64,000 nt of DNA. Origin: an uncultured Gemmatimonadaceae bacterium (GTDB lineage Bacteria > Gemmatimonadota > Gemmatimonadetes > Gemmatimonadales > Gemmatimonadaceae). This document shows, one piece after another, positions 3,676 through 50,072 of the stretch. A program made the translations under genes and the position numbers. The notes beneath the pieces were generated by a model. It was not told the origin of the DNA and made no database searches. It saw only the letters and a program-made list of their open reading frames with translations. The DNA lies in NCBI GenBank assembly GCA_963817955.1, contig CAWFQK010000004.1, positions 640,001 to 704,000 on the forward strand. Reading direction: 5' to 3'. Position 1 is the stretch's first letter, and each line of letters begins with the position of its first letter.

Positions 3676-6564
3676 ATGTCCTGGCTCAGACGCGCTGTCC
3701 TGATCCTGATTCTCGTGCCGGCGGTGGCGAACGCCCAATTCACCGTGCGCACGTGGCTGCCCTGGCGCACCATCGAGACCCCGCATTTCGCGTTTCACTA
3801 TCCGAGGGAGCTCGACGCGTGGACGCAAAGTGTCGCGCTGCGCGTGGAGGCAATCGATTCGGCGGTGTCGCGGCTCGTCGGCTACACGCCGGCGCGTAAG
3901 ACGCACGTTGTCGTCGACGATCCCTATGAAACGCCGAACGGGTCGGCCTGGCCGTATCTCAACGGGCCGGTGATCAGCCTCTGGGCGACACCGCCCGATC
4001 CGCGCGATGACATTGGCGAGTTTCGTGTGTGGGGGGAAATGGTGGTGTCGCACGAATTCGCGCACATCGCGCACCTGACGCGACCTTCGCGGAACGCGTT
4101 TACCAGGCATCTGTGGCAGGCCCTGCCGGTGGACATCGGTCCCGTGGCCATGCGCGCGCCCCGGTGGGCAATCGAAGGCTACGCTACGTACATCGAAGGA
4201 CGCGTCACAGGATCCGGCCGGCCCCATGGCGCATGGCGTGCAGCCTTTCTCCGCCAGTGGGCGCTCGAAGGCCAGTTGCCGCACTACGAACAGCTCGACT
4301 CCTGGGGCGCGTATGCGGGAGGAGAGTTCGCCTATCTTGCCGGTTCGGCGTACCTCGAATGGCTCGTCGCCCACCACGGAGACTCGAGCCTCGTTCAGGT
4401 CTGGCGACGGCTCAGCGCCAAGCAGACACGCACCTTCGATCAAGCATTCACCGGCGTGTTTGGCGAAAGCCCACGCGCCCTGTATGGACAGTTCACCACG
4501 GACCTCACCGCGAATGCGCTCGCCGCGCAACGTCTCATTCGCGCGGCGGGTACGGACACCGGCGCCATCGTGCAACGGTTGTCGTGGGGCACTGGCGATC
4601 CGGCCGTTTCGGCCGATGGACAGCGAATTGTAATTGTACTTCGCTCACCGACGGAAGCCTCGCGCGTGGTGATCTGGGGTTCGGCGCCTGAACCGGACAC
4701 CGGGAAAGCGCGGCGTGATTCCCTGCTGCTCCGCGCAGATCCAGAAGATGTGCCAGCGCGCGCCATCTACCCCGCTCCCAAGAAGGTGCTCGCCACATTG
4801 CGATCGAACGGCGCGTCGTATGACTCACCGCGTTTTCTGCGCGATGGACGGGTGCTGCTCTGGAAGAGTACACCCGTTGGAAACGGCTCATTTCGTCCCG
4901 ACCTTTTCCTGTGGGATCCACGGCGTCACCAGGTACGCCGAGTGACGCATGGAGCGTCGGTCCGCGACGGCGACCCATCTCCCGACGGACGCACCGCCGT
5001 GGCCGCGCGCTGTCATTCAGGATGGTGCGATCTGGTGTCGGTTGATTTGAATGACGGTGCGGTTCGCGTCATCGCGGCCGGGAGTCCCACTCGTTCGTTT
5101 TACCGTCCTCGGATCCGGCCCGGCGGCCGGGACGCAATCGTGTCCGTCCACGACGGAGCATCCTGGCAGCTCGCGCTCGTAACGCTCGCCACCGGCGAGA
5201 TGAGACACCTCGCAACGCCATCCGGTGCGAACTGGTATGACGCCGCGTGGGTGAATGCCACGCAGGTTGTCGCGGTGAGCGAGCGTGGCGGCGTGGCGAA
5301 CATTACGAGCGTCAACGTCGACAGCGCCGAGACACGGGTGCTCACTGCCGTTACTGGGGCAGCCGTGGCGCCGGAACCGAACCCGCGCGACAGCAGCATT
5401 CTCTTCCTATCACTCTATTCGCGCGGCTACGATCTTCGGTCCGTGCCGCGTGGCGGAACCACCGATGCTGCCGTGTCATTGCCGTCGGAGTTGACGCCCG
5501 CTGCCTCACCCCCGCCGCGGCCCCGCCGAGAGTTTCCGGCGAACGGCGTTTCAGCGCCACAGCCCTTTGCGCTGACGCCGCGCCTCTTCCGTTGGATTCC
5601 TCAGCCAGAGTTCGACGCCGACGGCATGAGTCTGGGACTCGGTTTGGTGAGCAACGACATGATTGGACGAAGCGAGGTGATCGCCAAGTTTGCGCTCGGC
5701 GACGCCGCCATGTGGCGCGGCGGCGCGCTCAATACAAACTGGCGTGGGACGCGTCCTGCGATTCACGTCCAATTCTTCGCCGCCGAACAACGTCCGAGCG
5801 AAAGCCACTTGCCGGTAGCGCGGCCGATCGACCTCGATGCGCGGCTGAGCGGCGCCACGTTGGCCGTGGACGGCACGCAGCAATACGAGCGTTGGGCATC
5901 GCGGCTGCGCGCCGGCGGAAGCGTCGGCCAGGCAACGATGCTCGCGGCGCAGACGCCGTCGTCGGCCGAATCGTCGGCCATTCGCGCCCTCGTGTTCGCC
6001 GACGGCGCGCTGGCCTGGACCCAGCGCGGCGCCTTGGCGAGCGTAACCGAATCGTTCGGGGTCAACGCCACCGCCGGGCAGTCGTTCTCCAATCGCTTTT
6101 CGCGGGGCGTCGTGACCGCGAGCCTCTCATCGTCTGGCCAGCGCGCGTTTCCGCTCGGCGTCTCCGCGCTCTACGGTCGCACCAACGCCGACGCCCCGCC
6201 GTTCGAGCAGTTTGCGCTCGGCGGCGGAGCATCGCCGATCATCGATCGCGTGCTGCTCTCCCAACGCGTGACCATGCCAGCACTACCGACAGCCATGAGC
6301 GTGAACTCGTCGGTGTTCACATATCGGGCGACATTGGCCGCCGCGCCATTCGTGTGGTATTGGTGGGCGGGCAGCACGGCGGCGGCCGGCGAGCGGTTCA
6401 CCGCGTGGCAGCGCGTGGCCGGCCTGGAGTGGTCGGAGGCGGTCGGTCCGATCGCCATCGCCGGGACACCCGCGGCACGCATCCAGATTGGCGTCGGCGA
6501 GTCATTAGACGCGCCGTTCCGGCATCGGGTGCGGGCGTACCTGAACCTCGTCCTGGACCCCTAG
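3676..6564 (+). CDS. secreted multidomain protein: gluzincin-like peptidase domain + TolB-like beta-propeller + probable C-terminal outer-membrane beta-barrel
   Basis: Signal peptide [25 protein letters not shown] with downstream [21 protein letters not shown] repeats; amphipathic beta-rich C-terminus. Confidence 0.75.
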
Positions 6565-7878
6565 CGCATCACCGACGATCGGCGAGACCATCGGCCGGAA
6601 CTGTTCCGTTTCGGTCGATCCGGCCAGAGCGGCCGTGGACGCGAGGCCGCCGGTGATCGTGGTCAGGATGGAATCGAAGTAGCCGGCCCCCGCCTCACGT
6701 TGATGTTTCGTGGCGGTGTAGCCAACCGATTCACTCGCGAACTCCTGAGCCTGCATGCGGACGTATGCCGGCATGCCCTCGGCGACGTATGCTTTGGCAA
6801 GCTCGAACGTGTAGAGGTTGATGAGATGCCAACCGGCGAGCGTGATGAACTGGAACGCATATCCCATTGCCGCCAGCTCGCGCTGGAACTTGGCAATCGT
6901 GGCCGCGTCGAGATTGTGCTCCCAGTTGAACGACGGCGAGCAGTTGTAGGCGAGCGCCTTATTTGGATATTCGGCGTGAATACCCTCGGCGAACGACTTC
7001 GCTTCGGCCAGGTCGGGAGTAGCAGTCTCGCACCACACGACATCGGCGTATCTGGCGTACGCACGTCCGCGCGCCACGGCCGACCGCATCCCGCCCTTCA
7101 CACGATAGTATCCCTCGGGCGTCCGGTCGCGGGAAATGAACTCGCGGTCGCGCTCGTCAGCGTCGCTCATCAGCAGCGTCGCGCCCAGCGCATCCGTGCG
7201 CGCAATGATCACCGTCGGTATGTCGAGCACGTCGGCAGCCAGGCGGGCCCCGGCCAGCGTACGCTCGAACTGCGCAGTGGGCACAAGCACCTTGCCGCCC
7301 ATGTGTCCGCACTTTTTTTCCGATGCGAGCTGGTCTTCGAAGTGCACGCCCGCGGCGCCGGCCTCGATCATCGATTTCATCAACTCGAACGCGTGCAGCG
7401 GACCACCGAACCCCGCTTCGGCGTCGGCCACGATCGGCACGAGCCAATCGCGATCACCTTTTCCCTCGCTCCACTCCACCTGATCGGCTCGCAACAAGGC
7501 ATTGTTCAACCGGCGAACGAGCGCGGGCACCGAGTTACTCGGGTACAAGCTCTGATCCGGGTAGGTGTGTCCCGCCAGGTTGGCGTCGGCGGCAACCTGC
7601 CACCCGCTCAGGTAGATCGCCTGCAGGCCGGCGCGAACCATCTGGACGGCCTGCGCGCCGGTCATCGCGCCAAACGTCCGAACACTGGATCCAGAGTTGA
7701 GTAGTTCCCACAACCGATCGGCACCGAGGCGCGCGAGTGTATGCTCGATGCGCACCGAGCCGCGCAATCGCACTACCTCGTCGGCTGAATAGCCACGGCT
7801 GATGCCATTCCACCGCGGATCGTTCGCCCATTCACGGTCGATCGCACGACCTTCGTCATTCGCTCGCGTCACGTCCAT
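6505..7878 (-). CDS. aceA: isocitrate lyase
   Basis: [12 protein letters not shown], catalytic [24 protein letters not shown]. Confidence 0.98.
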
Positions 7879-7900
7879 CGCGTGTCCTCCGCTGGAGCGG

Positions 7901-9502
7901 CTAGTGGTTGTCGCGGTCGTTCAATAATCGGTATCCCGGTATGGTGAGGAATTCCTGGAATTCTCCGAGCACGAGGAGATCGAGCAAGGCCGACGCGTCG
8001 TCCCACCGTGCCCCCTCGCGGCCGTCGGCCTTCAGGGAATGGATGACACGATCGCGAATTTCCTTGTACCCCTGCGCACTCATCGTGCCGTCATCGGCGA
8101 TCGGCGATTCGTGCTGCACCCACTGCCAGAGCTGCGAGCGCGAGATCTCGGCCGTGGCGGCATCTTCCATGAGATTGTGGATCGCCACCGCGCCCTGTCC
8201 ACGGAGCCATGACTCGATGTATTGCAGGGCGACATCGACATTTGTTTCGATACCGGTGAGCGTCACGGCACCGTTCGCGATGGCAAAGTCGGTCAGCTGC
8301 GACGCGTCCACTTTCACATCATCGCGCAGGCGCTCCTTCTGATGCGGCTTGCTGCCGAGGACGCGGTCGAACACCTCGCGCGCCACGGGAACGAGGTCGG
8401 GGTGAGCGACCCAGGTGCCATCGAAGCCATCACCTGACTCGCGCTCTTTGTCCTCGCGTACCTTCGCCAGCGCACGCTCGGTGACGTCGGGGTCCTTCCG
8501 GCTTGGAATGAATGCCGCCATGCCGCCAATGGCATGCGCGCCGCGCCGGTGACAGGTCTTGACGAGCAATTGCGTATAGCTGCGCATGAAGGGCACCGTC
8601 ATCGTGAGCTGCGCGCGATCGGGCAGCACGCAGTCGGCGCGATGCCGGAAGGTCTTGATGACGCTGAAGAGATAATCCCAGCGGCCGGCGTTCAGGCCCG
8701 CGGAGTGCTCGCGCAACTCGTACAGGATCTCATCCATCTCGAAGGCAGCAAGGATCGTCTCGATCAGGACCGTGGCGCGCACGCTGCCGCGCGGGAGACC
8801 CAGCGAATCTTGCGCGAAGTTGAACACATCGTTCCAGAGCCGCGCTTCGAGGTGGCTCTCCATCTTCGGCAGATAGAAATACGGGCCGGTACCGCGGGCA
8901 AGCAGCTCACGCGCATTGTGGAAGAAATAGAGGCCGAAGTCGAACAGGCTGGCCGACACCGGAGCCCCGTCGACGATCAGGTGCGATTCCGTGAGATGCC
9001 AGCCGCGCGGACGGACGACGAGTGTCGCAATCTCCTGGTTCAGCCGATACGACTTGCCTTCCGGCGAGTCGAGCGACAGTTCCCGTCGTACGGCGTCCAT
9101 GAGGTTTGACTGACCGTCGACGACGTTCTCCCAGGTCGGCGACAACGCGTCCTCCAGGTCTGCCATGAAGACCTTCGCACCGGAATTGAGGGCGTTGATC
9201 ATCATCTTGCGGTCGACGGGCCCGGTGATCTCGACGCGTCGGTCATTGAGATCGGGTGGCGCTGGCGCAACGCGCCACCCGCCTTCGCGCACTACGGCCG
9301 TATCGGCTAGAAAATCCAATCGTTCGCCGCCACGGATTCGCACGCGTCTCTCGGCACGGCGCGCAAGGTTTGCTTCGCGCCTCGGGCCGAATTCGCGCTG
9401 CAGCCGCGCCACGAATTCAATGGCGTCAGACGTGAGGACACGCGCCGACTCACGGGTCGGCGCGGCAGCGATCGTAACGTCGTCGGCCGCGTGAATGGTC
9501 AT
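7901..9502 (-). CDS. aceB: malate synthase A
   Basis: [58 protein letters not shown]. Confidence 0.98.
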
Positions 9503-9751
9503 CGAAGGCTCCGATTGTGAGGGGAATCGATGGAGCCTCGAGCTAAATATATGCCAACGATTAGGACTATTTACCGACGACAGGTGAGCCCGTTCGACCT
9601 ATATTACGCCACCCTGCGCCGTGGGGGGGGCGGGGAGGGCAGCACCGGAGAAGTCAGGAGCGCCGAGTGGGCACGAAGCTCCACGTTCGGCCGCCACATG
9701 CGACGGGCGATTCAAACGAAATCGTCCACGCTACCACCAGGAGGACGGAAG

Positions 9752-11146
9752 ATGAAGTTTCACCGTGCTACACGGGTGTTGCTCGCGTCTGCGGTTCTCG
9801 CCATACCAGCCAGTGTATCGGCCCAGGCATTCGGGCTGAACGAAATTGGCTCCTGCGCGATCGCCCGGGGATTCGCCACGACGGCGTCCCCATGTAAGGA
9901 TGCCTCTACCATTTATTGGAATTCGGCGGCCGCAACGCGGCTCACCGGTTGGAACGTGACCGCCGGCGTCGCGTCGATCGCCGTCAAGGGCGACTTCCTG
10001 CAGGACACGACAGGGCGGAGTTGGGATACCGAAATTCCCACGGCGTACGTCCCGCACGTATTCGTCAACTATCATGCGCCCTCGAGCAGGGCCGCGTGGG
10101 GTCTGGGGTTTTACGTCCCCTATGGCTTGACGTCCCAATGGGGCTCGGATTTCCCTGGCCGATTCTCGGCGATGAAGGCTTCACTGAAGACCTTCTATAT
10201 ACAGCCGAACATCGCGTGGCAGCTCACACCGAAGTGGTCCATCGGCGGCGGGCCGATCGTTGGCCACTCAACTGTAGAGCTGATTCAGGGCATCGATCTG
10301 TCGACGCAGATTGCAGCGCCGAATACGACATTCGGCCAGCTCGGCATCGCGACCGGTACCGAGTTCGCCCGCGCCACATTGAAAGGCAGCGCCACGGGAT
10401 ACGGCGCGCAGGTCGCAATCGTCGGCCAACCGACGCCTGAATGGAGCATCGGCGCACGATACCTGTCGCCAATCACGTTCAAGTACGACAACGCCGACGC
10501 CACCTTCCAACAGATTCCTACGAATCTGGTCCTCGGCGGCTCGCTACAGCCGCCGTTAACGGTGGGCACACCGGTCGATCTGCTAGTGGCGGGCCAGTTT
10601 GCCGCTGGCGGCGCACTGGTCGCCCAGAAAGCGTCGACGACGATCACGCATCCGGCACAGTTTCAGGCGGGCGTCGCCTACTCAGGGTACCGGAACTGGC
10701 TGCTCGAGGGTGACTACGCTTGGGTTGGCTGGAACAGATTCAACACATTGCCGGTGCGGTTCGCCGGTCCGGCCAGCAGCTCGAATAGAGACCTGATCGA
10801 GGCCTACAACAACTCATCAGCCATCCGTCTGGGCGTCGAGTACACCATTCCCACGGACGGATGGAAGCTGCGCGCCGGCTTCGCCGGTGTGTCCAGCGCT
10901 GCCCCGGCGGAAACCGTGACGCCGCTCCTTCCCGAGCAGGACCGTAATTACGCGTCGTTCGGCGCAGGCATTCCGATCATGCACACGTGGACGCTCGATG
11001 CGACGTATTCGCACGTGTACACGCCGGGCGCCCGGGGCCGCATTGTAGAGCGCACGAGCCTCACGCAGACTGCGGCACAATTGAATACCGGCGTATACAC
11101 ACTGGCGGCGAATATTTTCTCGCTGACACTCAAGGCCAACTTCTAA
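9752..11146 (+). CDS. FadL/OmpP1-family long-chain fatty acid outer-membrane transporter
   Basis: GGAGG SD; signal peptide then AFGLNEIG, DASTIYWNSA, PYGL..W; terminal Phe. Confidence 0.88.
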   Translation: MKFHRATRVLLASAVLAIPASVSAQAFGLNEIGSCAIARGFATTASPCKDASTIYWNSAAATRLTGWNVTAGVASIAVKGDFLQDTTGRSWDTEIPTAYVPHVFVNYHAPSSRAAWGLGFYVPYGLTSQWGSDFPGRFSAMKASLKTFYIQPNIAWQLTPKWSIGGGPIVGHSTVELIQGIDLSTQIAAPNTTFGQLGIATGTEFARATLKGSATGYGAQVAIVGQPTPEWSIGARYLSPITFKYDNADATFQQIPTNLVLGGSLQPPLTVGTPVDLLVAGQFAAGGALVAQKASTTITHPAQFQAGVAYSGYRNWLLEGDYAWVGWNRFNTLPVRFAGPASSSNRDLIEAYNNSSAIRLGVEYTIPTDGWKLRAGFAGVSSAAPAETVTPLLPEQDRNYASFGAGIPIMHTWTLDATYSHVYTPGARGRIVERTSLTQTAAQLNTGVYTLAANIFSLTLKANF

Positions 11147-11165
11147 CCGCCCAGGAGAATCTCGG

Positions 11166-12416
11166 ATGTCTCGCACGCAAGCAGTGCTTCGCGGCGCCCT
11201 CCTGACGGGCGCAGCCGCCGTGATGGTCGCATGTGGTGAGGCTGGGACTGTCGTCAACCCGCCCGTAAACAACGCGATCTTCCAGAGCTACGTCGCACTC
11301 GGAAACAGCATTACAGCCGGTTACCAATCGGGCGGCATCAACGATTCCACCCAGAAGCTGGCCTATCCGGTGCTGCTGGCGCACCAGATGGGGACGCGGT
11401 TCGCATACCCATCGCTCAGCATGCCAGGGTGCGCTCCGCCGGTCAACAACTTTCTGGCCGGCACGCGCGTGACGCTCTCTGGGCAGCCGGCCTCGACCGC
11501 CCTCACCTGCGGGCCCGTCGGGGGTGCTCCGCGCAACCTGGCATCGGTGTCGGCGACGATCAACAACGTCGCTGTACCGGGCATCGCCACGGCCGATCCG
11601 TTCGCATCGGGGGCAACTGCGCCGAACAACAACGCGCTCATGCAGTTGTTCCTGGGCGGCGAAACGATGGACCGGAAGGCGCTCGACAATCAGCCAACGT
11701 TCGCGACGGTGTGGGTGGGGAATAACGACATCCTGGCACCGGCGCTCAACGGATTCCCGTCCACGGCGACGCCCGTGGCGACGTTCACGGCCAACTACGC
11801 CAAGATGATGAACGAGCTGATCGCGGGCGCACCGGGCCTCAAGGGTGTGCTGATCGGAGTGGTTCAGGTGGCGGCCGCCCCGTTGATGTTCCAGGCGGCG
11901 CTGATCCGGAGTCCTGCAATAGCAGCCGCAGCAGCTTCGGTGGCTGGGCGGGCGGTAACGCTGGATCCGAACACCTGCACGGCGGGGGTTGGAGATAACG
12001 CGCTAATCAACTTCCAAGCGTTGGCGGCAATCAAGTCGCGTCCGTTGGCACAGCCGGGCACGATCTACTGTTTCCCGGTACTCGGGGGCGGTGCCACCGA
12101 TCCGGGCGATGCCGGCATCCTCGACATCACCGAGCAGGCTACCGTGACCGCGCTGATCAACGGGTATAATGCCTATATCAAGGCAAAGGCAGACAGCATC
12201 GGATTCGGCTACTATGATCCGAACCCCCTCCTGGCGTCCCTCAAGGCCAACGGATCAGTCCCGGCATTTCCGAACCTGACGAGCGCTCAGCCGTTCGGGA
12301 TCTACTTCTCGCTGGACGGTGTCCACCCAACTGGGGCAGCACACCTGCTGATCGCGAACGACTTGATCACGTTGATCAACGGCAAGTTCGGCACGAGCCT
12401 CACGCCGGCGCAGTAA
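11166..12416 (+). CDS. SGNH/GDSL hydrolase-family lipoprotein
   Basis: Lipobox MVAC; block I YVALGNSITAG; block III GNND; block V SLDGVHP; AGGAG SD. Confidence 0.87.
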   Translation: MSRTQAVLRGALLTGAAAVMVACGEAGTVVNPPVNNAIFQSYVALGNSITAGYQSGGINDSTQKLAYPVLLAHQMGTRFAYPSLSMPGCAPPVNNFLAGTRVTLSGQPASTALTCGPVGGAPRNLASVSATINNVAVPGIATADPFASGATAPNNNALMQLFLGGETMDRKALDNQPTFATVWVGNNDILAPALNGFPSTATPVATFTANYAKMMNELIAGAPGLKGVLIGVVQVAAAPLMFQAALIRSPAIAAAAASVAGRAVTLDPNTCTAGVGDNALINFQALAAIKSRPLAQPGTIYCFPVLGGGATDPGDAGILDITEQATVTALINGYNAYIKAKADSIGFGYYDPNPLLASLKANGSVPAFPNLTSAQPFGIYFSLDGVHPTGAAHLLIANDLITLINGKFGTSLTPAQ

Positions 12417-18345: not shown

Positions 18346-18643
18346 TACTGCTTTGTTAGTGATACCGCGGACGATTGCCGCGGATGACCGCGGATGACTA
18401 CCGCCCTCGATCGGGCGAACAGACCCACGACCATCGCCCCCCCAATGAAACGCGCGGCCGCGACAGCCGGCCCGAGCGAGGAGCCGTCGCGTAGCCGCGC
18501 GACTGACGACTGACAACCGTTTTACTGATGACTGAAGACAGTTACCCGCTGTCCCGATCGCTTGATCTCGCGTAGCGCGCAGGGCCACGTCTCAACGGTT
18601 CGCGCCGGTACCGCCGCCAGCGCTGAACTCGGACAGAGCAGTA
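18346..18643. mobile_element. MITE, copy A (298 bp)
   Basis: Ends TACTGCTTTGT...ACAGAGCAGTA are inverted and flanked on both sides by CTAA. The interior is homologous to 49671-50072. Confidence 0.8.
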
Positions 18644-20772: not shown

Positions 20773-20834
20773 CGGCGATAGTGGCCTGCGAGCCAGACAC
20801 CCTGGTGCGCATGCCCCGTATACTCACCACTCAC

Positions 20835-20945
20835 CACTGATAACTGATCACAGTCACCCGTCGTCCCGATCGCTTGCGCCAGCCCCCGCTCGATCATCCA
20901 CCGACTGCGCGGCAGTCGTCCGCGGGTATCGCCGACAAAGCAGTA
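20835..20945. mobile_element. MITE partial copy C (one end only, reversed)
   Basis: Reverse complement of the left ~120 bp of 49671-50072; ends GACAAAGCAGTA followed by CTAG. Confidence 0.75.
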
Positions 20946-43329: not shown

Positions 43330-43620
43330 AGAACAGCTGTTAACGCAGAGGTCGCAGAGAACTGCAGGAGAACTGCAGAGGACTGCAAAAGAGAACTGCA
43401 AAAGGGAACTGCAAATAGAGCACTGGAAAAGGGAACTGCAAAGAGAACGGGAAGCGTACGGAAGAGAGAAGCGCGTATTGGTGGAATGAACCGTGATTGC
43501 CGAGTCCACAATCATTCCGCTTATATCATCGATGATCCCGACCTGGGCGAAACCATCCTTCACGGTCCTCTGCAGTTCTCCTGCAGTTCTCTGCGACCTC
43601 TGCGTTAAAAAGCTGTTCTG
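43330..43620. repeat. inverted-repeat-bounded element (AACGCAGAG/GAGAACTGCA family), copy 2
   Basis: 44-bp perfect inverted repeat (43340-43383 / 43565-43608) with internal GAACTGCAAA-like short repeats. Confidence 0.88.
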
Positions 43621-43628
43621 TCGGCCAC

Positions 43629-43739
43629 AGAGATCCTTCGCTCCGCTCAGGATGACAGGCCGTCGCTCAGGATGACAGGCCTCGGCAAGAGATCCTTCGC
43701 TCCGCTCGGGATGACAGGCCGTCGCTCGGGATGACCGGC
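43629..43739. repeat. REP-like palindromic cluster
   Basis: Two units with period 59: AGAGATCCTTCGCTCCGCTC(A/G)GGATGACAGGCCGTCGCTC(A/G)GGATGAC. Confidence 0.8.
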
Positions 43740-43759
43740 TTCGCCCCTCCCGTGTCTCC

Positions 43760-44686
43760 CTACCCGACCGCCCGTTCCGGTAACACTGTTCCTTCCGCCC
43801 AGCTCACCGGCTCTGCGACGACCACCGGATGAGCAACGGAGTGCAGTTCCTCGGCCCAGTCCGCAATCCGCCGCATGACGTCCAGTTGATCCGCCATCAC
43901 AGAAAACTGATGGTCGACGTCTGGCAGGAACTCCGCGCGAATGCGGTCGCCGATCCCGAACGGCGCCATCGTGTCGCGGAATTGATCAGCGTAATTGTAT
44001 TCGACCAACGCATCGCCCGAGTAGAGCAAGCGGATGTGAACGCCTCGGTCCAGTAGCCGGCTGAGACCCGCCGCAAACTCCGCCCGGGTGGGAATGAAAT
44101 TGACGACCCCAAGCCGCGGCACCGCTTGCGCCGAGGGAGCGCCGACGGCGGACGAACGAACCCAGGAACGACCTGCTCCAACGCCCCGTTTCAGGAAATT
44201 CACAACCCGGGACGCCAGCTGCGGCTCGCCGAGCGCCCGGGCGTAATAGATCAGATGCGTTTTGAGAGTTGGGAAACGGTACGCATCGAACATCAGCAAG
44301 CCGGCCACACGCTCGTCGCTGAGCGCTGTAGCGTATCCATGGTAGGCGCCGGAACAGATCCCAAAGATCGCGAACCGACTGATCCCTGCCGCGGCCCCGA
44401 GGGCGTCCATTGCGGCGCGGATATCGGCCATGGCCTGCGCCTCGAACGTGTTCTCACCTGTGAGCCTGGCACTGTCCCCGTGACCAGCGAGGTCGATGCG
44501 GATCGACGCGATCCCGCGCGCCGCGAGATAGCGGGCCACTCGCACGTTGATGCGATGGGGACCAACGCGGTGGATGATGCCGGCGTTCAACAGGACGAAC
44601 CCAGTCTCTGCCAGCCCGCTGTCTGGCAACGCGATAGTTCCGACGAGGCCCTCGTTCGGACCAAAGGCCAGGGAATGCTCTTTCAT
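43760..44686 (-). CDS. alpha/beta hydrolase with Cys at the nucleophile elbow (GICSG)
   Basis: LNAGIIHRVGPHR, RIDLAGHGDS, GICSGA, DHQF; ATGA-coupled to the NRPS-like gene. Confidence 0.85.
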   Translation of the reverse strand: MKEHSLAFGPNEGLVGTIALPDSGLAETGFVLLNAGIIHRVGPHRINVRVARYLAARGIASIRIDLAGHGDSARLTGENTFEAQAMADIRAAMDALGAAAGISRFAIFGICSGAYHGYATALSDERVAGLLMFDAYRFPTLKTHLIYYARALGEPQLASRVVNFLKRGVGAGRSWVRSSAVGAPSAQAVPRLGVVNFIPTRAEFAAGLSRLLDRGVHIRLLYSGDALVEYNYADQFRDTMAPFGIGDRIRAEFLPDVDHQFSVMADQLDVMRRIADWAEELHSVAHPVVVAEPVSWAEGTVLPERAVG

Positions 44687-47493
44687 AGCTCCCCCTTGAT
44701 CTCCTCGAGCATGCTGCGAATGTCATCCGTCGGGACCGTGGAATCCGCCAGCATGTCATTGACGAGCCAGTTGATGTCGGATGCCGTCGTTCGCAGCGAT
44801 ACGTCGATCCCAGCTCGCTCCAAGTCCTGTCCCAACTTTGCCGTCTCACCGTCGGCGCGTCCCGTGAAGAGGCTGACCGCTGCTCCGCATTTCTCAAAGG
44901 ACCCCGCCGCCAGCTTGCCAAGTTGTTCTCTGAGCAACGGAGTCAATGGATGTCCGAGCGATTCAGTCCTGGCCTCCTCGATTGCACGTGCGGACAACTG
45001 GCCCTGCATCTCCCAGCGCCTTCCGTATTGCGCCTTCCGGGAGGCGACATGAGCGTTCGCTAATTCGTCGAGATACGCAGCCCCGTCAGTGATCGGCTCC
45101 CAGAGGACCAGCCGGTCCGGCGCACGATTCGCCCGCGCCGACGCCAAGGCGGCTAACGTCCCCCCGAGCTTCAATCCCAGCCACACGCTGCGCCGTGCGC
45201 CGCTGCGGCGCAGCAGCTCCTGGTGCGCCTGCAGGATATCCGACGTCCATCCGTCGATATCACCCAACGCATCGTCACCAGCGGAATCACCAGTTCCGAA
45301 GTAGTCGAATCGCAGCACGTGAAATCCGCTGGCCGCCAGGCGCTCGGCAAGAATCCTGAACACACGATGCGAGCGCACGGCTTCCTGGCCAAACGGATTG
45401 CAGAGGATGCAGCATGCCGACCCGTACTGCCCGCCAGCCGGCACGTGGTACAAGCCGACCATTTCCCGATCCGGCAAACCAAAACGAATCACGTTGACGT
45501 GCGACTCCGTGGTCGAGGACCGTGGAGTAGCCCGCGTAGTGCGGATAGGCACGGTGCGCGCGGCGGCGGTGCCGTTCGCCGTCGCCGACCGGTTGCCCTG
45601 GCGTGCGGGGTTCGCTTTCTCGAGAGCTGCAGCCAGCAGTGCGGTCGTGGAATTCTCGAATACGGTTTGCAACTCGAGCGCGACGCCGAACTGGGCCTCG
45701 ATCTGGGCGACGGCCGCGACCACCATGAGCGACGAAGCGCCCAGGTCGAAGAAGTCGTCATGCACCCCGACGTGATCGAGCTTCAGGAGCGCGCCCCAGA
45801 TCGTTGCCAGTCGCTTCTCCGTTTCGCTGCTCGGCGCAATGAACTCCTGCGTCCTCGATGCGTCATTGTAGTTCGGAACCGGCAACGCCCCGCGGTCCAC
45901 CTTTCCGTTCTGCGTGAGCGGGAATGCAGAGAGGAACATGAAATGGGACGGCACCATGTAGTCGGGCAGTCGTTCCCGTAAGAAGCGACGCATGTCGTCC
46001 GCTGACGGCGCGCTTCCATCGAGCGGAACGACATACGCGACCAGACGCTTGTTGCCGGGCGGCTGCTCGTGAACGAGCACCGTTGCCCCGCGTATGCCTG
46101 GCTGGCCGGCCAGCGTCGTTTCGATCTCACCAAGCTCGATCCGATACCCATGGATCTTGACCTGATTGTCGGCGCGACCCAGGTATTCGAGTATGCCGTT
46201 CGGGCGGTATCGCGCCAGGTCCCCCGTCTTGTAGAGACGTGCACCCACGCGTCCGGAAAACGAATCGGGCAGAAACCGTTCGCGCGTCAGCTCCGGACGG
46301 TTGAGATACCCGCGGGCCACGCCGGCACCGCCGATATAGAGCTCGCCCATCTCACCGATCGGCACGGGCTGGAGCGATTCATCCAACACATACAGCTCAG
46401 TGTTCGCGATCGGCCGTCCAATAGGTATGGAGCCGTTGGGCGGATCCTCGGGCCGTACCTCGTACACGCAGCATCCCACGACCGTCTCGGTCGGTCCGTA
46501 CTCGTTGATCAGACGTGTGGCCGGCGCCACGTCGCGCCAGAAGCGCAGACTCTCGGCGGTCAGATTCTCGCCGCCAATGATGAAAGCGCGCGTCATCCCT
46601 GGTGCGGCACGCGCTCCAATCCGTTGCGTGAGCAGCTCCAGGTGCGCGGGCGTAATCTTGACGAGCCCTCTCTGCCGACCGTCCTGCAGGGCCGCGATCA
46701 GACTCTGTGCGCCGACATCTTCGGGCAGCAGTTCCGCCCGTCCCCCGGCGAGCAGTGCGGGATACAGACTCGTGATGGTCAGGTCGAATGAGATCGAGGA
46801 GTGCACCGGCACGACGTCGCCGGCTCGAACGCCATAGGCACCAATCGCCCACCAGAGATAGTTGACCAGCCCATCGTGCTGAATCAACGCGCCCTTGGGC
46901 CGTCCCGTCGACCCGGACGTATAGATCACGTACGCGAGGTTGGTGGGCGTAGCCGCCGCAGAAAGGTTTGCGCGACTCTCCTGATCGATCGCGCCCCAAT
47001 GTGAATCCAAGCATATCAGCTTGTGCTTCACCTGTGGAAACAACGACTCGGCATTCGCGTCGGTCAGCAGGAGGTGCACGGCGGCATCTTCCACCATGAA
47101 GGCCAAGCGTTCCGCGGGGTACGTTGGATCGATTGGCACATAGGCCCCACCGGCCTTCCAGATGCCCAGCAGCGCAATCACCATCTGCGGCGAGCGGTGC
47201 ATCGACACGCCGACCAGTGTGTCAGGGCCGACGCCGCGGCGGCGCAAGTCGTGTGCGACCTGATTGGCGCGCTCATTGAGCTCGCGATACGTCAGCGATT
47301 GACTTCCGGATGTGACAGCGATCGCCAATGGCGCACGTGCCACCTGCTCCTCGAACAACTCGTGCGCGCACCGATGGGGGAATGGCGCGAGCGTCGCGTT
47401 CCACTCATCGATGACCCGATGGCGGTCCGCCTCGGTCAACGTAGCAGGAGGTGCACGGTACTCAGCACTCAGAGGATTCAGCTCCGTCTCCAT
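44683..47493 (-). CDS. NRPS-like protein: adenylation domain - PCP - alpha/beta-hydrolase-like domain; no C domain
   Basis: YVIYTSGSTGRPKG, SFDL, NEYGPTE, YKTGDL, RIELGEIE, NGKVDR; PCP DDFFDLGASSL; C-terminal CNPFGQE..RFDYFGTGDS..GLKLGG. Confidence 0.92.
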   Translation of the reverse strand: METELNPLSAEYRAPPATLTEADRHRVIDEWNATLAPFPHRCAHELFEEQVARAPLAIAVTSGSQSLTYRELNERANQVAHDLRRRGVGPDTLVGVSMHRSPQMVIALLGIWKAGGAYVPIDPTYPAERLAFMVEDAAVHLLLTDANAESLFPQVKHKLICLDSHWGAIDQESRANLSAAATPTNLAYVIYTSGSTGRPKGALIQHDGLVNYLWWAIGAYGVRAGDVVPVHSSISFDLTITSLYPALLAGGRAELLPEDVGAQSLIAALQDGRQRGLVKITPAHLELLTQRIGARAAPGMTRAFIIGGENLTAESLRFWRDVAPATRLINEYGPTETVVGCCVYEVRPEDPPNGSIPIGRPIANTELYVLDESLQPVPIGEMGELYIGGAGVARGYLNRPELTRERFLPDSFSGRVGARLYKTGDLARYRPNGILEYLGRADNQVKIHGYRIELGEIETTLAGQPGIRGATVLVHEQPPGNKRLVAYVVPLDGSAPSADDMRRFLRERLPDYMVPSHFMFLSAFPLTQNGKVDRGALPVPNYNDASRTQEFIAPSSETEKRLATIWGALLKLDHVGVHDDFFDLGASSLMVVAAVAQIEAQFGVALELQTVFENSTTALLAAALEKANPARQGNRSATANGTAAARTVPIRTTRATPRSSTTESHVNVIRFGLPDREMVGLYHVPAGGQYGSACCILCNPFGQEAVRSHRVFRILAERLAASGFHVLRFDYFGTGDSAGDDALGDIDGWTSDILQAHQELLRRSGARRSVWLGLKLGGTLAALASARANRAPDRLVLWEPITDGAAYLDELANAHVASRKAQYGRRWEMQGQLSARAIEEARTESLGHPLTPLLREQLGKLAAGSFEKCGAAVSLFTGRADGETAKLGQDLERAGIDVSLRTTASDINWLVNDMLADSTVPTDDIRSMLEEIKGEL

Positions 47494-47592
47494 CGCCGCT
47501 CTCACGTCAACGTGTCTTGAGCCATTCGAACGCAAATCCCGAACCATCATTTGTCTACAATCGCGTCAACGATCTCTGATGTCAGCGGCCCA

Positions 47593-48768
47593 TCACAGCG
47601 ACCAGGCGATGAGCTCTTTCATGACTTCATTGGCGCCGGCATAGATGCGCTGCACGCGGCTGTCGGTCCACATGCGGGCAATTGGATACTCGGCCATGAA
47701 CCCATAGCCGCCGTGCAATTGCACGCACTCGTCGATGACCCGGCACTGCATGTCGGTAAGCCAGTATTTGGCCATCGCCGCGCTCGCGTCATCGAGATCG
47801 CCGTTCATGAACCGAACAATGCAATCGTCGACGAATACGCGGCCCACCCGGGCGCTGGTCGCGCACTCCGCCAACTTGAATCTCGTGTTCTGCAAGTCGA
47901 ACATCGGGTTGCCGAACAACGCCCGTTCCTTGGCATACCGGACGGTCGTTGCGACTGCCTCTTCGGCCATGGCAACCGCTCCCACGGCAATGGATAGCCG
48001 CTCGAAGGGCAGTTGCCGCATCATCTGCGTGAAGCCGCGGCCCTCAACGGTTCCGAGCAGATTGGCCGCGGGGACGCGCACGTTGTCAAAGAAGATCTCG
48101 CAGCTATCCAACCCGTGCATCCCGACTTTCTCCAGCGGCCGTCCAACGGAATACCCCGGCAAGTCCTTTGTCTCGACCATGATGAGCGAGATGGCCCGCA
48201 TTGCCACCGCGGCCGGATTGGTCTTCGCGGCCAGGCACACGAGTCCCGAGTGCCACGCGTTGGTGATGAACGTCTTGGAGCCGTTGATCACGTACGAATC
48301 GCCTTCGCGCCGCGCCGTGGTCTTGATCCCCGAGAGATCAGATCCAGCGCCCGGCTCCGTCATCGCGATTGCACCCACGAGCTCACCGCGCGCCATGGGC
48401 GGCAGCCACTTCTGCTGCTGGGCGTCGCTCCCGTATGCCGCGATGTAGTGGCCGACGATGTTCTGCACGCCGGAGCCGAAGTTGATGCCCGCGCGCGCTA
48501 ACTCCTCTTGTACGACGCACGCGTGAGCGAACGTGCCTCCTCCGCCAATCCCCAGCGGCAAGTCCGGAAGCAACAAGCCAAGGCAGCCCGCATTCAGCCA
48601 GTCTGACGGATCGGGATGGTGCTGCTGGCGCCAGCGATCCTGTTGCGGCTCGAATGTCTGCTCGATGAAGCCGCGCACGGCATCGCGGAACAGGCTGACA
48701 TCTTCCGTCTCCCAGGGGGACTGATAGGCGTTCGCCGGCCTGAGGCTCCGTTCAACGTCAACTGTCAT
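47593..48768 (-). CDS. acyl-CoA dehydrogenase (long-chain type signature)
   Basis: IAMTEPGAGSD, NGSKTFITN, LPFERL, QLHGGYG, RVQRIYAGANE. Confidence 0.93.
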   Translation of the reverse strand: MTVDVERSLRPANAYQSPWETEDVSLFRDAVRGFIEQTFEPQQDRWRQQHHPDPSDWLNAGCLGLLLPDLPLGIGGGGTFAHACVVQEELARAGINFGSGVQNIVGHYIAAYGSDAQQQKWLPPMARGELVGAIAMTEPGAGSDLSGIKTTARREGDSYVINGSKTFITNAWHSGLVCLAAKTNPAAVAMRAISLIMVETKDLPGYSVGRPLEKVGMHGLDSCEIFFDNVRVPAANLLGTVEGRGFTQMMRQLPFERLSIAVGAVAMAEEAVATTVRYAKERALFGNPMFDLQNTRFKLAECATSARVGRVFVDDCIVRFMNGDLDDASAAMAKYWLTDMQCRVIDECVQLHGGYGFMAEYPIARMWTDSRVQRIYAGANEVMKELIAWSL

Positions 48769-48878
48769 CCGAGAAGATGCTCCATCGCACTAGAGGATTT
48801 CGCTGGTCCTTCCCATCGTTTGGGGGATGCTGTGCATGGGTCATGCTCTTGGGTACGGCAAGAACTTCGGCCAGGTTG

Positions 48879-49670
48879 ATGTCGACAATTTCCATGTCCA
48901 GTTGGAATGAATGGACACTCGCAGAGACATGTACGACGGCAGCGTGTACGCTGCAGAGCGACAGCGCGCACGTGTGGCGAATGGTGCTATCGGCTGCCGC
49001 AGCAGAGCGTTGGGGGCCGCTGCTCAGTCACGATGAGACGACGCGAGCCTGCGCATTTCGAAGCGCCGAGGCCCAACGACGATTCATCGCGAGTCACGGG
49101 ATGCTGCGCGCTATCCTGGGGAGCTACCTCGGTGTTCCAGGCCACGATGTTGTCGTGACAACGCAACAGTGGGGCAAGCCGATCGTTGCGTCGCCACTAC
49201 ATCCCGAGATCCAGTTCAACATGTCGCATGCGGCAGACGTCGGCCTGGTGGCAATCGGAATCGGCCCTGGCGTGGGGGGGGGGGTGGGGGGGGGGGTGGG
49301 GGTCGACATCGAGAGCATCGAACATTCGCCGGACTGGAACGGGCTACTCGATCTCGCGCTCTCGCCCGACGAACGGATGCATGTGCTCTCGCTGCCGCCG
49401 GCAAACCGACAGGCGGCCTTTCTGACGTACTGGACGCAGAAGGAGGCGTACCTGAAAGGAATCGGAGTCGGGCTGAAGCCGCACCCCGGCGAATTGGCCG
49501 TCGTCTCCGGTCCGGACCGGTCGGCGCGCATTCAGACATCGGGCAGGATTGGCCCCGATGCGGACTGGATTGTCACTCCCCTTCCCGCGCCCATGGAGGG
49601 ATACGTCGCCGCGTTGGCCACCAATACTGTGGTCAGGGAAATAGTGCTGCGGGCCTGCTCAGCGGCGTAG
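48879..49670 (+). CDS. Sfp-type 4'-phosphopantetheinyl transferase
   Basis: GKP, FNMSHA, VGVDIE, WTQKEAYLKGIG. Start uncertain. Confidence 0.9.
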   Translation: MSTISMSSWNEWTLAETCTTAACTLQSDSAHVWRMVLSAAAAERWGPLLSHDETTRACAFRSAEAQRRFIASHGMLRAILGSYLGVPGHDVVVTTQQWGKPIVASPLHPEIQFNMSHAADVGLVAIGIGPGVGGGVGGGVGVDIESIEHSPDWNGLLDLALSPDERMHVLSLPPANRQAAFLTYWTQKEAYLKGIGVGLKPHPGELAVVSGPDRSARIQTSGRIGPDADWIVTPLPAPMEGYVAALATNTVVREIVLRACSAA

Positions 49671-50072
49671 TACTGCTTCGTCAGTGATACCCGCGGATAA
49701 CCGCGGACGACTGCCGCGCAGTCGCGCGAATGATCGAGCGGGGGCAGGCGCAAGCGATCGGGACGACGGGTGACTGTGATCAGTCATCAGTGCGTGGGTC
49801 GTCAGTCCTCAGTGACTGAGGACCCCGACAGCCCTCGATCGGGCGAAGAGACCCGCGACCATCCACCACCATAAAGAACGCGCGACCACGAAAGCCGGCC
49901 CGAGCGAGAACCCGTCGCCTCGCCGCGCGACTGATGACTGAGCACCGCTTACTGATGACTGAAGACAGTCACCCGCCGCCCCGATCGCTTGACCTCGCGT
50001 GGCGTCGCCGGACCCAGCCGCAGAGGTTGGCGTCGTTACCGCCGCCAGCGCTGAACCTCGGACAAAGCAGTA
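49671..50072. mobile_element. MITE, copy B (402 bp)
   Basis: Ends TACTGCTTCGTC...GACAAAGCAGTA, flanked by GTAG/ATAG; homologous to 18346-18643 and 20835-20945. Confidence 0.8.

Follow-up and report, generated by a model that had tools for sequence, protein, structure and literature searches.

The described systems closest to the locus reported here, a four-gene unit at positions 43760-49670 of a 64-kb stretch of DNA from an uncultured Gemmatimonadaceae bacterium (the whole of this stretch is termed the window), are the exosortase-A-system-associated hydrolases 2 and 1, modelled in NCBIfam as the hypothetical equivalogs TIGR03101 and TIGR03100. A bona fide TIGR03101/TIGR03100 pair is present in Janthinobacterium (L180, G152:C1:1232000-1250000; 285 and 325 bits), in a locus comprising PrsK, PrsR, TIGR03100, TIGR03101, a TIGR03098 ligase, a TIGR03099 pyridoxal phosphate (PLP) decarboxylase, an AsnB-like amidotransferase and a methyltransferase. 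This pair displays WGLRLGA in hydrolase 2 and WGLCDGA in hydrolase 1, with the His kept, and the GLRLG/GxC motifs that a previous reading of the window, made from its letters alone (the sequence-only reading), had given for these proteins are thus found in a true pair. The unit in the window encodes an acyl-CoA dehydrogenase (ACAD), a nonribosomal peptide synthetase (NRPS)-like protein in which an adenylation (A) domain and a peptidyl carrier protein (PCP) domain are fused to a hydrolase 2-like domain (A-PCP-hydrolase 2), a separate hydrolase 1-like protein and a phosphopantetheinyl transferase (PPTase). As in the TIGR03101/TIGR03100 pair, the two α/β hydrolases are adjacent, combine a basic elbow residue in one partner with Cys and His in the other, and have an adenylating enzyme and a carrier protein as neighbours. 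In contrast, the hydrolase 2 of the window shares one chain with an A-PCP of the amino-acid type, an ACAD stands in place of the decarboxylase, and the pair lies outside an XrtA/EpsH PEP-CTERM locus, in a genome with no PF09721 match.

Other described systems resemble the unit in part. SyrC (syringomycin) and CmaE (coronamic acid) are Cys-dependent α/β-hydrolase-fold aminoacyl transferases, in which a phosphopantetheinyl thioester gives up its aminoacyl group to the nucleophilic Cys of the enzyme, for onward transfer; they differ in being single proteins that act between two carrier domains, with no dead partner described, and are likened here by description. DltA/DltC/DltB/DltD and AlmE/AlmF/AlmG carry out carrier-dependent aminoacylation of teichoic acid and lipid A, respectively, and share with the unit a stand-alone adenylating enzyme that charges a carrier with a single amino acid and, in the reading proposed below, the grafting of this residue onto a surface polymer without a condensation (C) domain. 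Their transferases belong to the MBOAT or lipid A acyltransferase families and no flavoenzyme takes part, whereas the window encodes a putative cytoplasmic Cys hydrolase heterodimer; neither an MBOAT (DltB) nor an AlmG-type transferase is among the Pfam matches of window open reading frames (ORFs) of at least 110 aa. The PF00975 thioesterases of NRPSs occupy the same end position on the carrier line and substitute for the hydrolase pair in sister loci (see below), but the window has no PF00975 match, its nucleophile would be Cys and not Ser, and the second subunit is obligatory and probably dead. No study of the hydrolase pair or of the ACAD plus Asn cassette was found in open PubMed Central or bioRxiv, and the architecture, as the sequence-only reading had held, corresponds to no characterised pathway found there.

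The features of the unit and its flanks are as follows.
43760-44686, minus strand: hydrolase 1-like α/β hydrolase, 308 aa, Cys111 in GICSG, His259
44683-47550, minus strand: A-PCP-hydrolase 2 gene, whole, longest ORF 955 aa
44683-45489, minus strand: hydrolase 2-like C-terminal domain, residues ~688-955, GLKLG, Lys794
45622-45813, minus strand: PCP domain, residues 580-643, PF00550 50.6 bits
45901-47355, minus strand: adenylation domain, residues 66-550, TIGR01733 466 bits
47593-48768, minus strand: ACAD similar to long-chain acyl-CoA dehydrogenase (LCAD), 391 aa, Glu256
48777-49670, plus strand: Sfp/HetI-type PPTase, 297 aa as listed, divergent from the ACAD gene
43340-43743, unstranded: left flank, inverted repeat resembling a miniature inverted-repeat transposable element (MITE) plus tandem copies, from a repeat scan
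49751-49991, unstranded: right flank, second and unrelated MITE-like inverted repeat with 41-nt arms

All four ORFs are intact in the ORF listing and its translations. On the minus strand the order of transcription is ACAD, A-PCP-hydrolase 2, hydrolase 1, and the stop codon of the A-PCP-hydrolase 2 gene overlaps the ATG of the hydrolase 1 gene by 4 nt, which fits translational coupling; in the database copy, A-PCP-hydrolase 2 starts at Met20 (position 47493) and comprises 936 aa. The compact four-gene unit with repeats on either side and a translationally coupled hydrolase partner, as originally described, therefore stands. We propose that this unit is a self-contained carrier cassette which loads asparagine, oxidises it on the carrier and off-loads it through a Cys thioester, a reading whose chances of being right or wrong we consider evenly balanced. 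The Sfp-type PPTase would convert the PCP to its holo form, and the A domain would activate L-asparagine or a close analogue and load it as a thioester on Ser607. The LCAD-like flavoenzyme may then act on the tethered residue by α,β-dehydrogenation, giving a dehydro- or imino-asparaginyl thioester; this is the least certain step. The fused hydrolase 2, with Lys/Arg at its elbow and no conserved His, would perform no chemistry but dock the separate hydrolase 1, whose Cys111 and His259 would accept the acyl group from the phosphopantetheine arm, forming a Cys thioester, before a nucleophile receives it. This final acceptor in relatives is probably an intermediate, located in the cytoplasm, on the way to a surface glycan or an exosortase-linked polymer, while in the genome of the window it could be water.

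The 955-aa protein displays Pfam matches to AMP-binding (66-416), AMP-binding_C, PP-binding (580-643) and Hydrolase_4 (731-852), and matches neither Condensation nor PF00975 Thioesterase (Pfam, E ≤ 0.01), in agreement with the earlier description of an NRPS lacking both a C domain and a Ser-type thioesterase. The score of the A domain against the amino-acid adenylation model TIGR01733 is 466 bits, well above the NCBIfam cut-off of 317.4 bits, and the carrier attachment residue, Ser607 in an LGASSL motif, is unchanged in 37/37 aligned orthologues. The protein thus comprises an NRPS adenylation-carrier module but is not a canonical NRPS assembly line: besides the missing domains in the gene itself, the genome (4.53 Mb, 94% complete) contains no match to the condensation domain PF00668. 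The ten specificity positions, located via the core motifs, read DLTKIGEVGK, which we take to be an asparagine-type code. It is kept as DLTK[IV]GEVGK in 36 of the 37 non-self cluster representatives of A-PCP-hydrolase 2, and suggests that the A domain activates Asn or a very close analogue. PMC12283262 takes up this code in its treatment of Asp/Asn/β-cyano-Ala and calls it "also compatible" with albicidin's cyano-alanine, a residue formed from Asn in situ.

The ACAD displays matches to PF02771, PF02770 and PF00441, all above the Pfam cut-offs, and aligns end to end with Geobacillus 2pg0 (334.6 bits) and human LCAD (295 bits). Glu256 (in LPFERL) aligns to the Glu of the LCAD motif LPQERL, with no Glu in the IYAGANE stretch, and we take this position to be the catalytic base of the LCAD/isovaleryl-CoA dehydrogenase (IVD) type. 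RedW, PigA, PltE and AnaB (PDB code 4irn) likewise combine an ACAD-fold enzyme, neighbouring an A domain and a carrier, with a Glu on the LCAD/IVD-type helix and not in the MCAD position. Membership of this prolyl-PCP dehydrogenase clade was considered and rejected, since the window ACAD misses the cut-offs of NF045652 RedW (179.3 versus 650) and NF053553 PigA (160.7 versus 500) and scores only 138 bits against 4irn, a solved prolyl-ACP dehydrogenase. The window enzyme is far nearer to LCAD (295-335 bits) than to 4irn, and its residue would be Asn; to our knowledge, no oxidation of carrier-loaded Asn by such a dehydrogenase has been described.

The association of this dehydrogenase with the A-PCP protein was followed in a metagenome scan with an alignment of A-PCP-hydrolase 2 orthologues, which retrieved 581 relatives, the best 80 of which were examined. 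An ACAD 57-80% identical to that of the window is present in 49 of these 80 loci; among the 29 loci whose sequence extends for at least 1.3 kb upstream and at least 6 kb downstream, 22 have it. Upstream DNA suffices in 61 loci to show whether the ACAD gene immediately precedes the A-PCP gene (gap <1 kb), and in 30 of them it does. The code DLTK[IV]GEVG is kept in 48 of the 49 ACAD-linked loci. The ACAD is thus the steadiest partner of the Asn-coded A-PCP. By sequence it looks like an enzyme of fatty-acid metabolism, but the linkage to A-PCP says otherwise, and its substrate would be the tethered residue.

The motifs of the two hydrolases are located at residue 792 of the 955-aa protein (GLKLG, where GxSxG is expected) and at residues 109-113 of the 308-aa partner (GICSG), as the sequence-only reading had noted. 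The best NCBIfam match of the C-terminal domain is TIGR03101 (E 1.4e-30, 106.7 bits, profile positions 13-248 of 266) and that of the partner is TIGR03100 (E 5.9e-22, 78.3 bits), which supports the proposed likeness to the exosortase-A hydrolases, although both scores fall below the curated cut-offs of 202.75 and 168.45 bits, respectively. Among 151 Gemmatimonadota genomes (two flagged as unpublished), none reaches the TIGR03101 cut-off and that of the window scores best. The window hydrolases are 24-26% identical to the L180 pair. The same Janthinobacterium genome encodes, beside a Polysacc_synt flippase gene, a separate NRPS-linked hydrolase 2/1 pair (109 bits; L007/L179), and this occurrence of both kinds in one genome indicates paralogous clades. 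From their profile scores, the window hydrolases are best described as distant paralogues of TIGR03101 and TIGR03100 that fall outside those models.

As in the TIGR03101/TIGR03100 pairs, the genes for hydrolases 2 and 1 lie side by side in the window, and when species-level genomes were scanned for the hydrolase 2 domain (265 relatives, the best 80 examined), hydrolase 1 was located directly after hydrolase 2 in 76/80 loci, the other four ending at a contig edge. Among 81 sequences the nucleophile position of hydrolase 2 is Arg in 77, Lys in two (one being the window protein) and Gly in two, and no conserved His was found. A basic residue, Lys794, thus replaces the nucleophile in the window, as in the TIGR03101 member. 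In contrast, the hydrolase 1 Cys and His are each present in 72/72 relatives of at least 240 aa, and the window protein retains both, as Cys111 and His259, so that it carries the GxCxG Cys and conserved His of TIGR03100. Candidates for the third triad residue are Asp258 (55/65) and Asp124 (62/65). The hydrolase 2 profile matches 5,241 clusters at 50% identity (E ≤ 1e-30); in 148 of the 150 listed proteins, 159 matching domains display Arg at the nucleophile position in 145 cases, Gly in 4 and Cys in 10, the Cys cases probably stemming from fusions, whose hydrolase 1 halves would match more weakly as a second domain. The hydrolase 2 domain is probably a non-catalytic docking partner.

That the two hydrolases work as one body is indicated by natural fusions, by the confident fold of one fusion and by a controlled complex prediction. 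Single-chain forms with an N-terminal GxRxG and a C-terminal GxCxG account for 26 of 28 retrieved proteins of ~550-650 aa, and the predicted fold of one hydrolase 2-hydrolase 1 fusion has a predicted local distance difference test score (pLDDT) of 86.7 and a predicted TM score (pTM) of 0.89; the AlphaFold2 (AF2) model of hydrolase 1 by itself has a pLDDT of 87.4. Complex prediction with the window hydrolase 1 and hydrolase 2 gave a score of 0.83 in all three runs, compared with 0.00 for the best of three controls. A score of 0.83 is attained by 116 of 157 solved complexes and by 2 of 215 mismatched pairs, a rough yardstick, our own alignments having been used. Contact agreement between the runs was at least 68% and partner pLDDT at least 76. 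The predicted interface displays pseudo-symmetry, in that the invariant GTGDS loop of hydrolase 2 contacts residues 37-48 of hydrolase 1, while the invariant GxGDS loop of hydrolase 1 contacts His/Arg 41-45 of hydrolase 2, and residues 258-267 of hydrolase 1, around His259, are also included. The model supports binding, and the two-part nature suggested from the sequence, together with the complex prediction proposed as a check on it, came out in favour of a heterodimer. Structural similarity searches revealed no specific relative among solved structures by sequence or fold. The best sequence matches, with 30.8 and 58 bits, were generic S33 esterases/lipases, and a sequence comparison with the PDB brought up no similar complex, the best match there being to generic hydrolases with 58 bits. 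The nearest fold is 8b4u (E 1.4e-12, TM 0.55-0.62), the nearest folds being esterases and lipases. Protein-atlas matches of hydrolase 1 were limited to unnamed α/β hydrolase clusters, and a metagenome contig scan with hydrolase 1 alone found nothing. The genome of the window holds a single hydrolase 1 gene; a weak second hydrolase 1/2-like match is located at G000:C2:20980-21462 (L083; E 2e-11 to the hydrolase 1 profile, in a 552-aa ORF).

The closest locus found belongs to a Gemmatimonadaceae metagenome-assembled genome (L001). The trio of ACAD, A-PCP-hydrolase 2 and hydrolase 1 recurs in ten loci (L001, L002, L004, L084-L088, L090 and L133), four of which (L004, L085, L086 and L133) hold the PPTase alongside and thus the full quartet; a PPTase stands beside an ACAD plus A-PCP unit in L004, L085, L086, L122, L133, L148 and L160. 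The four genes are therefore co-conserved elsewhere. On the question, raised by the sequence-only reading, of whether the NRPS gene is a broken piece of a larger cluster, the fused form stands alone, and A-PCP is the first module of a two-module line only in more distant relatives (L092, L095-L097, L121), where the second module, C-A-PCP, ends in a thioesterase (L092, L121) or in the hydrolase pair (L095-L097). More broadly, the pair terminates many multi-module NRPS and polyketide synthase (PKS)-NRPS lines in Burkholderiales, Gemmatimonadota, Myxococcota and others. The ACAD plus A(Asn)-PCP is the constant part of the cassette and the release enzyme varies. Thus, in L122 and L126, ACAD and A-PCP are followed by a TubC_N-docked methyltransferase and a TubC_N-docked PF00975 thioesterase, and in L160 by an AsnB-like gene and a TubC_N-docked PF00975 thioesterase. 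The off-loading role assigned to the hydrolase pair is supported by this replacement, as a thioesterase takes the place of the pair in these sister loci.

Several of these loci display additional features. Stand-alone TubC_N-bearing methyltransferases (MTS/PrmA-like) and PF00975 thioesterases are located at 8878-11400 in L122, 8866-11297 in L126, 8854-10191 in L117 and 10532-11647 in L160, and the TubC_N proteins that follow ACAD plus A(Asn)-PCP look like a trans-acting tailoring and release set recruited through docking domains. An AsnB-type asparagine synthase/amidotransferase paralogue adjoins the cassette in L002 (9733-11400, minus strand), L084 (10772-12433, minus strand) and L160 (8874-10643, plus strand), which fits a dedicated Asn supply or an amidation step. 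In L002 (Vicinamibacteria), a second hydrolase 2/hydrolase 1 unit is found at 772-2327, ~3.5 kb upstream of the cassette, apparently within a single ORF of 448 aa situated past the end of a further A-domain gene.

The settings in relatives are mostly glycan loci. They include exosortase EpsH, DUF3485 and a polysaccharide deacetylase in L122; WecG and a Bac_transf priming transferase in L126; AsnB and a UDP-glucose dehydrogenase in L084; a GNAT protein (Acetyltransf_6) and a GT4 glycosyltransferase in L085; DegT, GT4 and a deacetylase in L133; PIG-L and Acyl_transf_3 in L160; and a flippase in L137, L013 and L007. The genome of the window does not follow this pattern. Transfer is favoured over hydrolysis because of the invariant Cys and these glycan settings of the relatives. 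A broader proposal, which we put forward tentatively and hold to be somewhat doubtful, is that the heterodimer of Cys hydrolase and Arg/Lys pseudo-hydrolase represents a distinct, ancient and widespread class of off-loading transacylase for carrier proteins. Surface glycans or polymers linked to exosortase would receive from it thiotemplate units that range from a single oxidised Asn to PKS-NRPS chains, with ACAD plus A(Asn)-PCP as a conserved "decoration cassette" for an undescribed Asn-derived substituent. Were the pair a transacylase, it would constitute a third general ending of carrier lines, beside the thioesterase and the terminal C or reductase (R) domains, and would provide soil bacteria with a connection between NRPS/PKS chemistry and the polymers of the cell surface. 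Hydrolase 2 proteins alone form thousands of sequence clusters, with no biochemical study found, and the conserved ACAD plus Asn-loading unit predicts a chemistry on carrier-bound asparagine of which we know no description. New here are that the ACAD is linked to the A-PCP, that docked thioesterases can stand in for the pair, that the two hydrolases occur naturally fused, that their complex is predicted against controls, and that a single genome can contain both paralogous clades. The system has its smallest form in the quartet of the window, where a single amino acid would be loaded, no C domain takes part and a PPTase is included; this makes the quartet convenient for in vitro reconstitution.

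Several observations weigh against the load, oxidise and off-load scheme or against its extension to glycans. The ACAD is nearest to ordinary long-chain acyl-CoA dehydrogenases and its sequence gives no sign of a carrier-bound amino acid substrate; moreover, seven of the 29 well-covered metagenome loci have no ACAD, including L094, which has the hydrolase pair. The asparagine assignment is a specificity code predicted from sequence. Within the pair, the hydrolase 1 alignment reveals no conserved acid after strand 7 for a Cys-His-Asp triad, and the Lys/Arg of hydrolase 2 lies outside the confidently placed interface residues. A Pfam scan of the ORFs of at least 110 aa in the 64-kb window identified no polysaccharide gene and no PEP-CTERM gene, and the 94%-complete genome contains no exosortase (PF09721) match; with no exosortase or glycan genes here, the idea of a glycan acceptor derives from the relatives. 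Finally, no paper on the family was found in open PubMed Central or bioRxiv.

The alternative that survives best retains the same loading and oxidation but makes the pair a plain thioesterase, with water releasing a free product such as 2-oxosuccinamate or dehydro-Asn that other enzymes would use or that would serve as a small molecule. That L122, L126 and L160 have a TubC_N-docked PF00975 thioesterase where the pair would stand suits this explanation, as do the esterases and lipases found as nearest folds, the lack of an obvious acceptor pathway near the cassette in the 64-kb window and the missing exosortase. However, an invariant Cys (72/72) in place of Ser, together with a dedicated dead partner, would be elaborate for mere hydrolysis, and the strong association of the relatives with glycan loci suggests a defined acceptor. 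Cys α/β hydrolases that act on thioesters, such as SyrC, CmaE and PhaC, are transferases, which likewise counts against release by water. We consider this alternative unlikely, though far from implausible.

The LCAD-type best matches of the ACAD leave room for another explanation, in which the dehydrogenase would leave the tethered residue alone and convert a fatty acyl-CoA to a 2-enoyl-CoA, with the Cys hydrolase drawing on an acyl-CoA to N-acylate Asn-S-PCP, giving an N-acyl-asparagine lipoamino acid with no need for a C domain; no such domain occurs in the gene or was found in the genome, and N-acyl-Asn units are known starters elsewhere, as in the prodrug motifs of colibactin and xenocoumacin. 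Yet in L122, L126 and L160 ACAD plus A-PCP occurs with a thioesterase as sole third enzyme and no acyltransferase on hand, and neither an acyl-CoA ligase nor an acyl-ACP gene is conserved beside the cassette, which makes this route improbable.

The repeats that flank the unit bear on a further possibility. The arms of the left element, 53 nt each, are located at 43340-43392 and 43556-43608, and two tandem copies of 56 nt come next at 43629-43743; its family has 136 matches in the genome, many of 300-500 nt at 68-89% identity. The right family has ~8 full-length genomic copies at 83-95% identity with 41-nt arms. The notion that the repeats delimit one mobile unit was rejected, as they belong to two different genome-wide families, and they show a repeat-rich intergenic setting and not a transposon. 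Partial copies of the right-type repeat occur elsewhere in the window, and further repeat copies are located at 18400-18573 and 20822-20887. The surrounding genes, which encode a phosphoketolase, an HSP20-domain ORF, DUF488 and DUF3891 proteins, a GH63-like hydrolase, a TonB-type barrel and Lgt, are unrelated to the cassette. With dispersed repeats on either side, no glycan genes in the surroundings, Lys where Arg is usual at the nucleophile position of hydrolase 2, and no hydrolase 2 match in the one same-genus genome searched (G131), the cassette could be what is left, stranded and without a role, of a glycan-locus module gained by horizontal transfer. This has a slight probability: four intact frames, the retention of Cys111, His259, Ser607, the A-domain code and Glu256, the preserved 4-nt overlap and the recurrence of the stand-alone quartet in L004, L085, L086 and L133 all speak against decay. 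Slighter still is the probability that the Cys hydrolase shuttles aminoacyl groups, as SyrC and CmaE do, to a second carrier protein encoded elsewhere. Its Cys nucleophile, α/β fold and adjacent carrier domain, and the several carrier domains of multi-module relatives, would suit such a role, but the cassette has one carrier domain, the 94%-complete genome yielded no C domain, and searches of this genome for the hydrolases brought up neither another A-PCP nor another hydrolase pair.

The PPTase predicted by the sequence-only reading contains the expected ACPS and AASDHPPT_N domains, PF01648 with 52.9 bits and PF22624 (AASDHPPT_N) with 31.9 bits, both over the cut-offs, and is thus of the Sfp type; at 133 bits it misses the HetI equivalog cut-off of 370. 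As listed, its ORF starts 8 bp from the divergent ACAD start, while the domain matches begin at residue 54-82. Because an 8-bp gap leaves the promoters no room and the domain matches begin late, translation probably starts in fact at an internal Met near 48879, ~100 bp downstream. A scan for promoters and terminators gave results at or below shuffle expectation. A G-rich direct repeat in the PPTase gene (49260-49300) encodes a Gly/Val-rich insert, GVGGGVGGGVG, between the PPTase halves.

Outside the unit, a synteny comparison aimed at a possible insertion showed that the one same-genus genome, G131, lacks any match to the flanking phosphoketolase and matches the ADP-forming acyl-CoA synthetase only weakly and in part, at 28-33% identity. 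At 6508-12413 of the window, isocitrate lyase and malate synthase genes stand beside those for a FadL-type outer-membrane transporter and a GDSL lipase, and this region looks like a lipid and acetate utilisation block.

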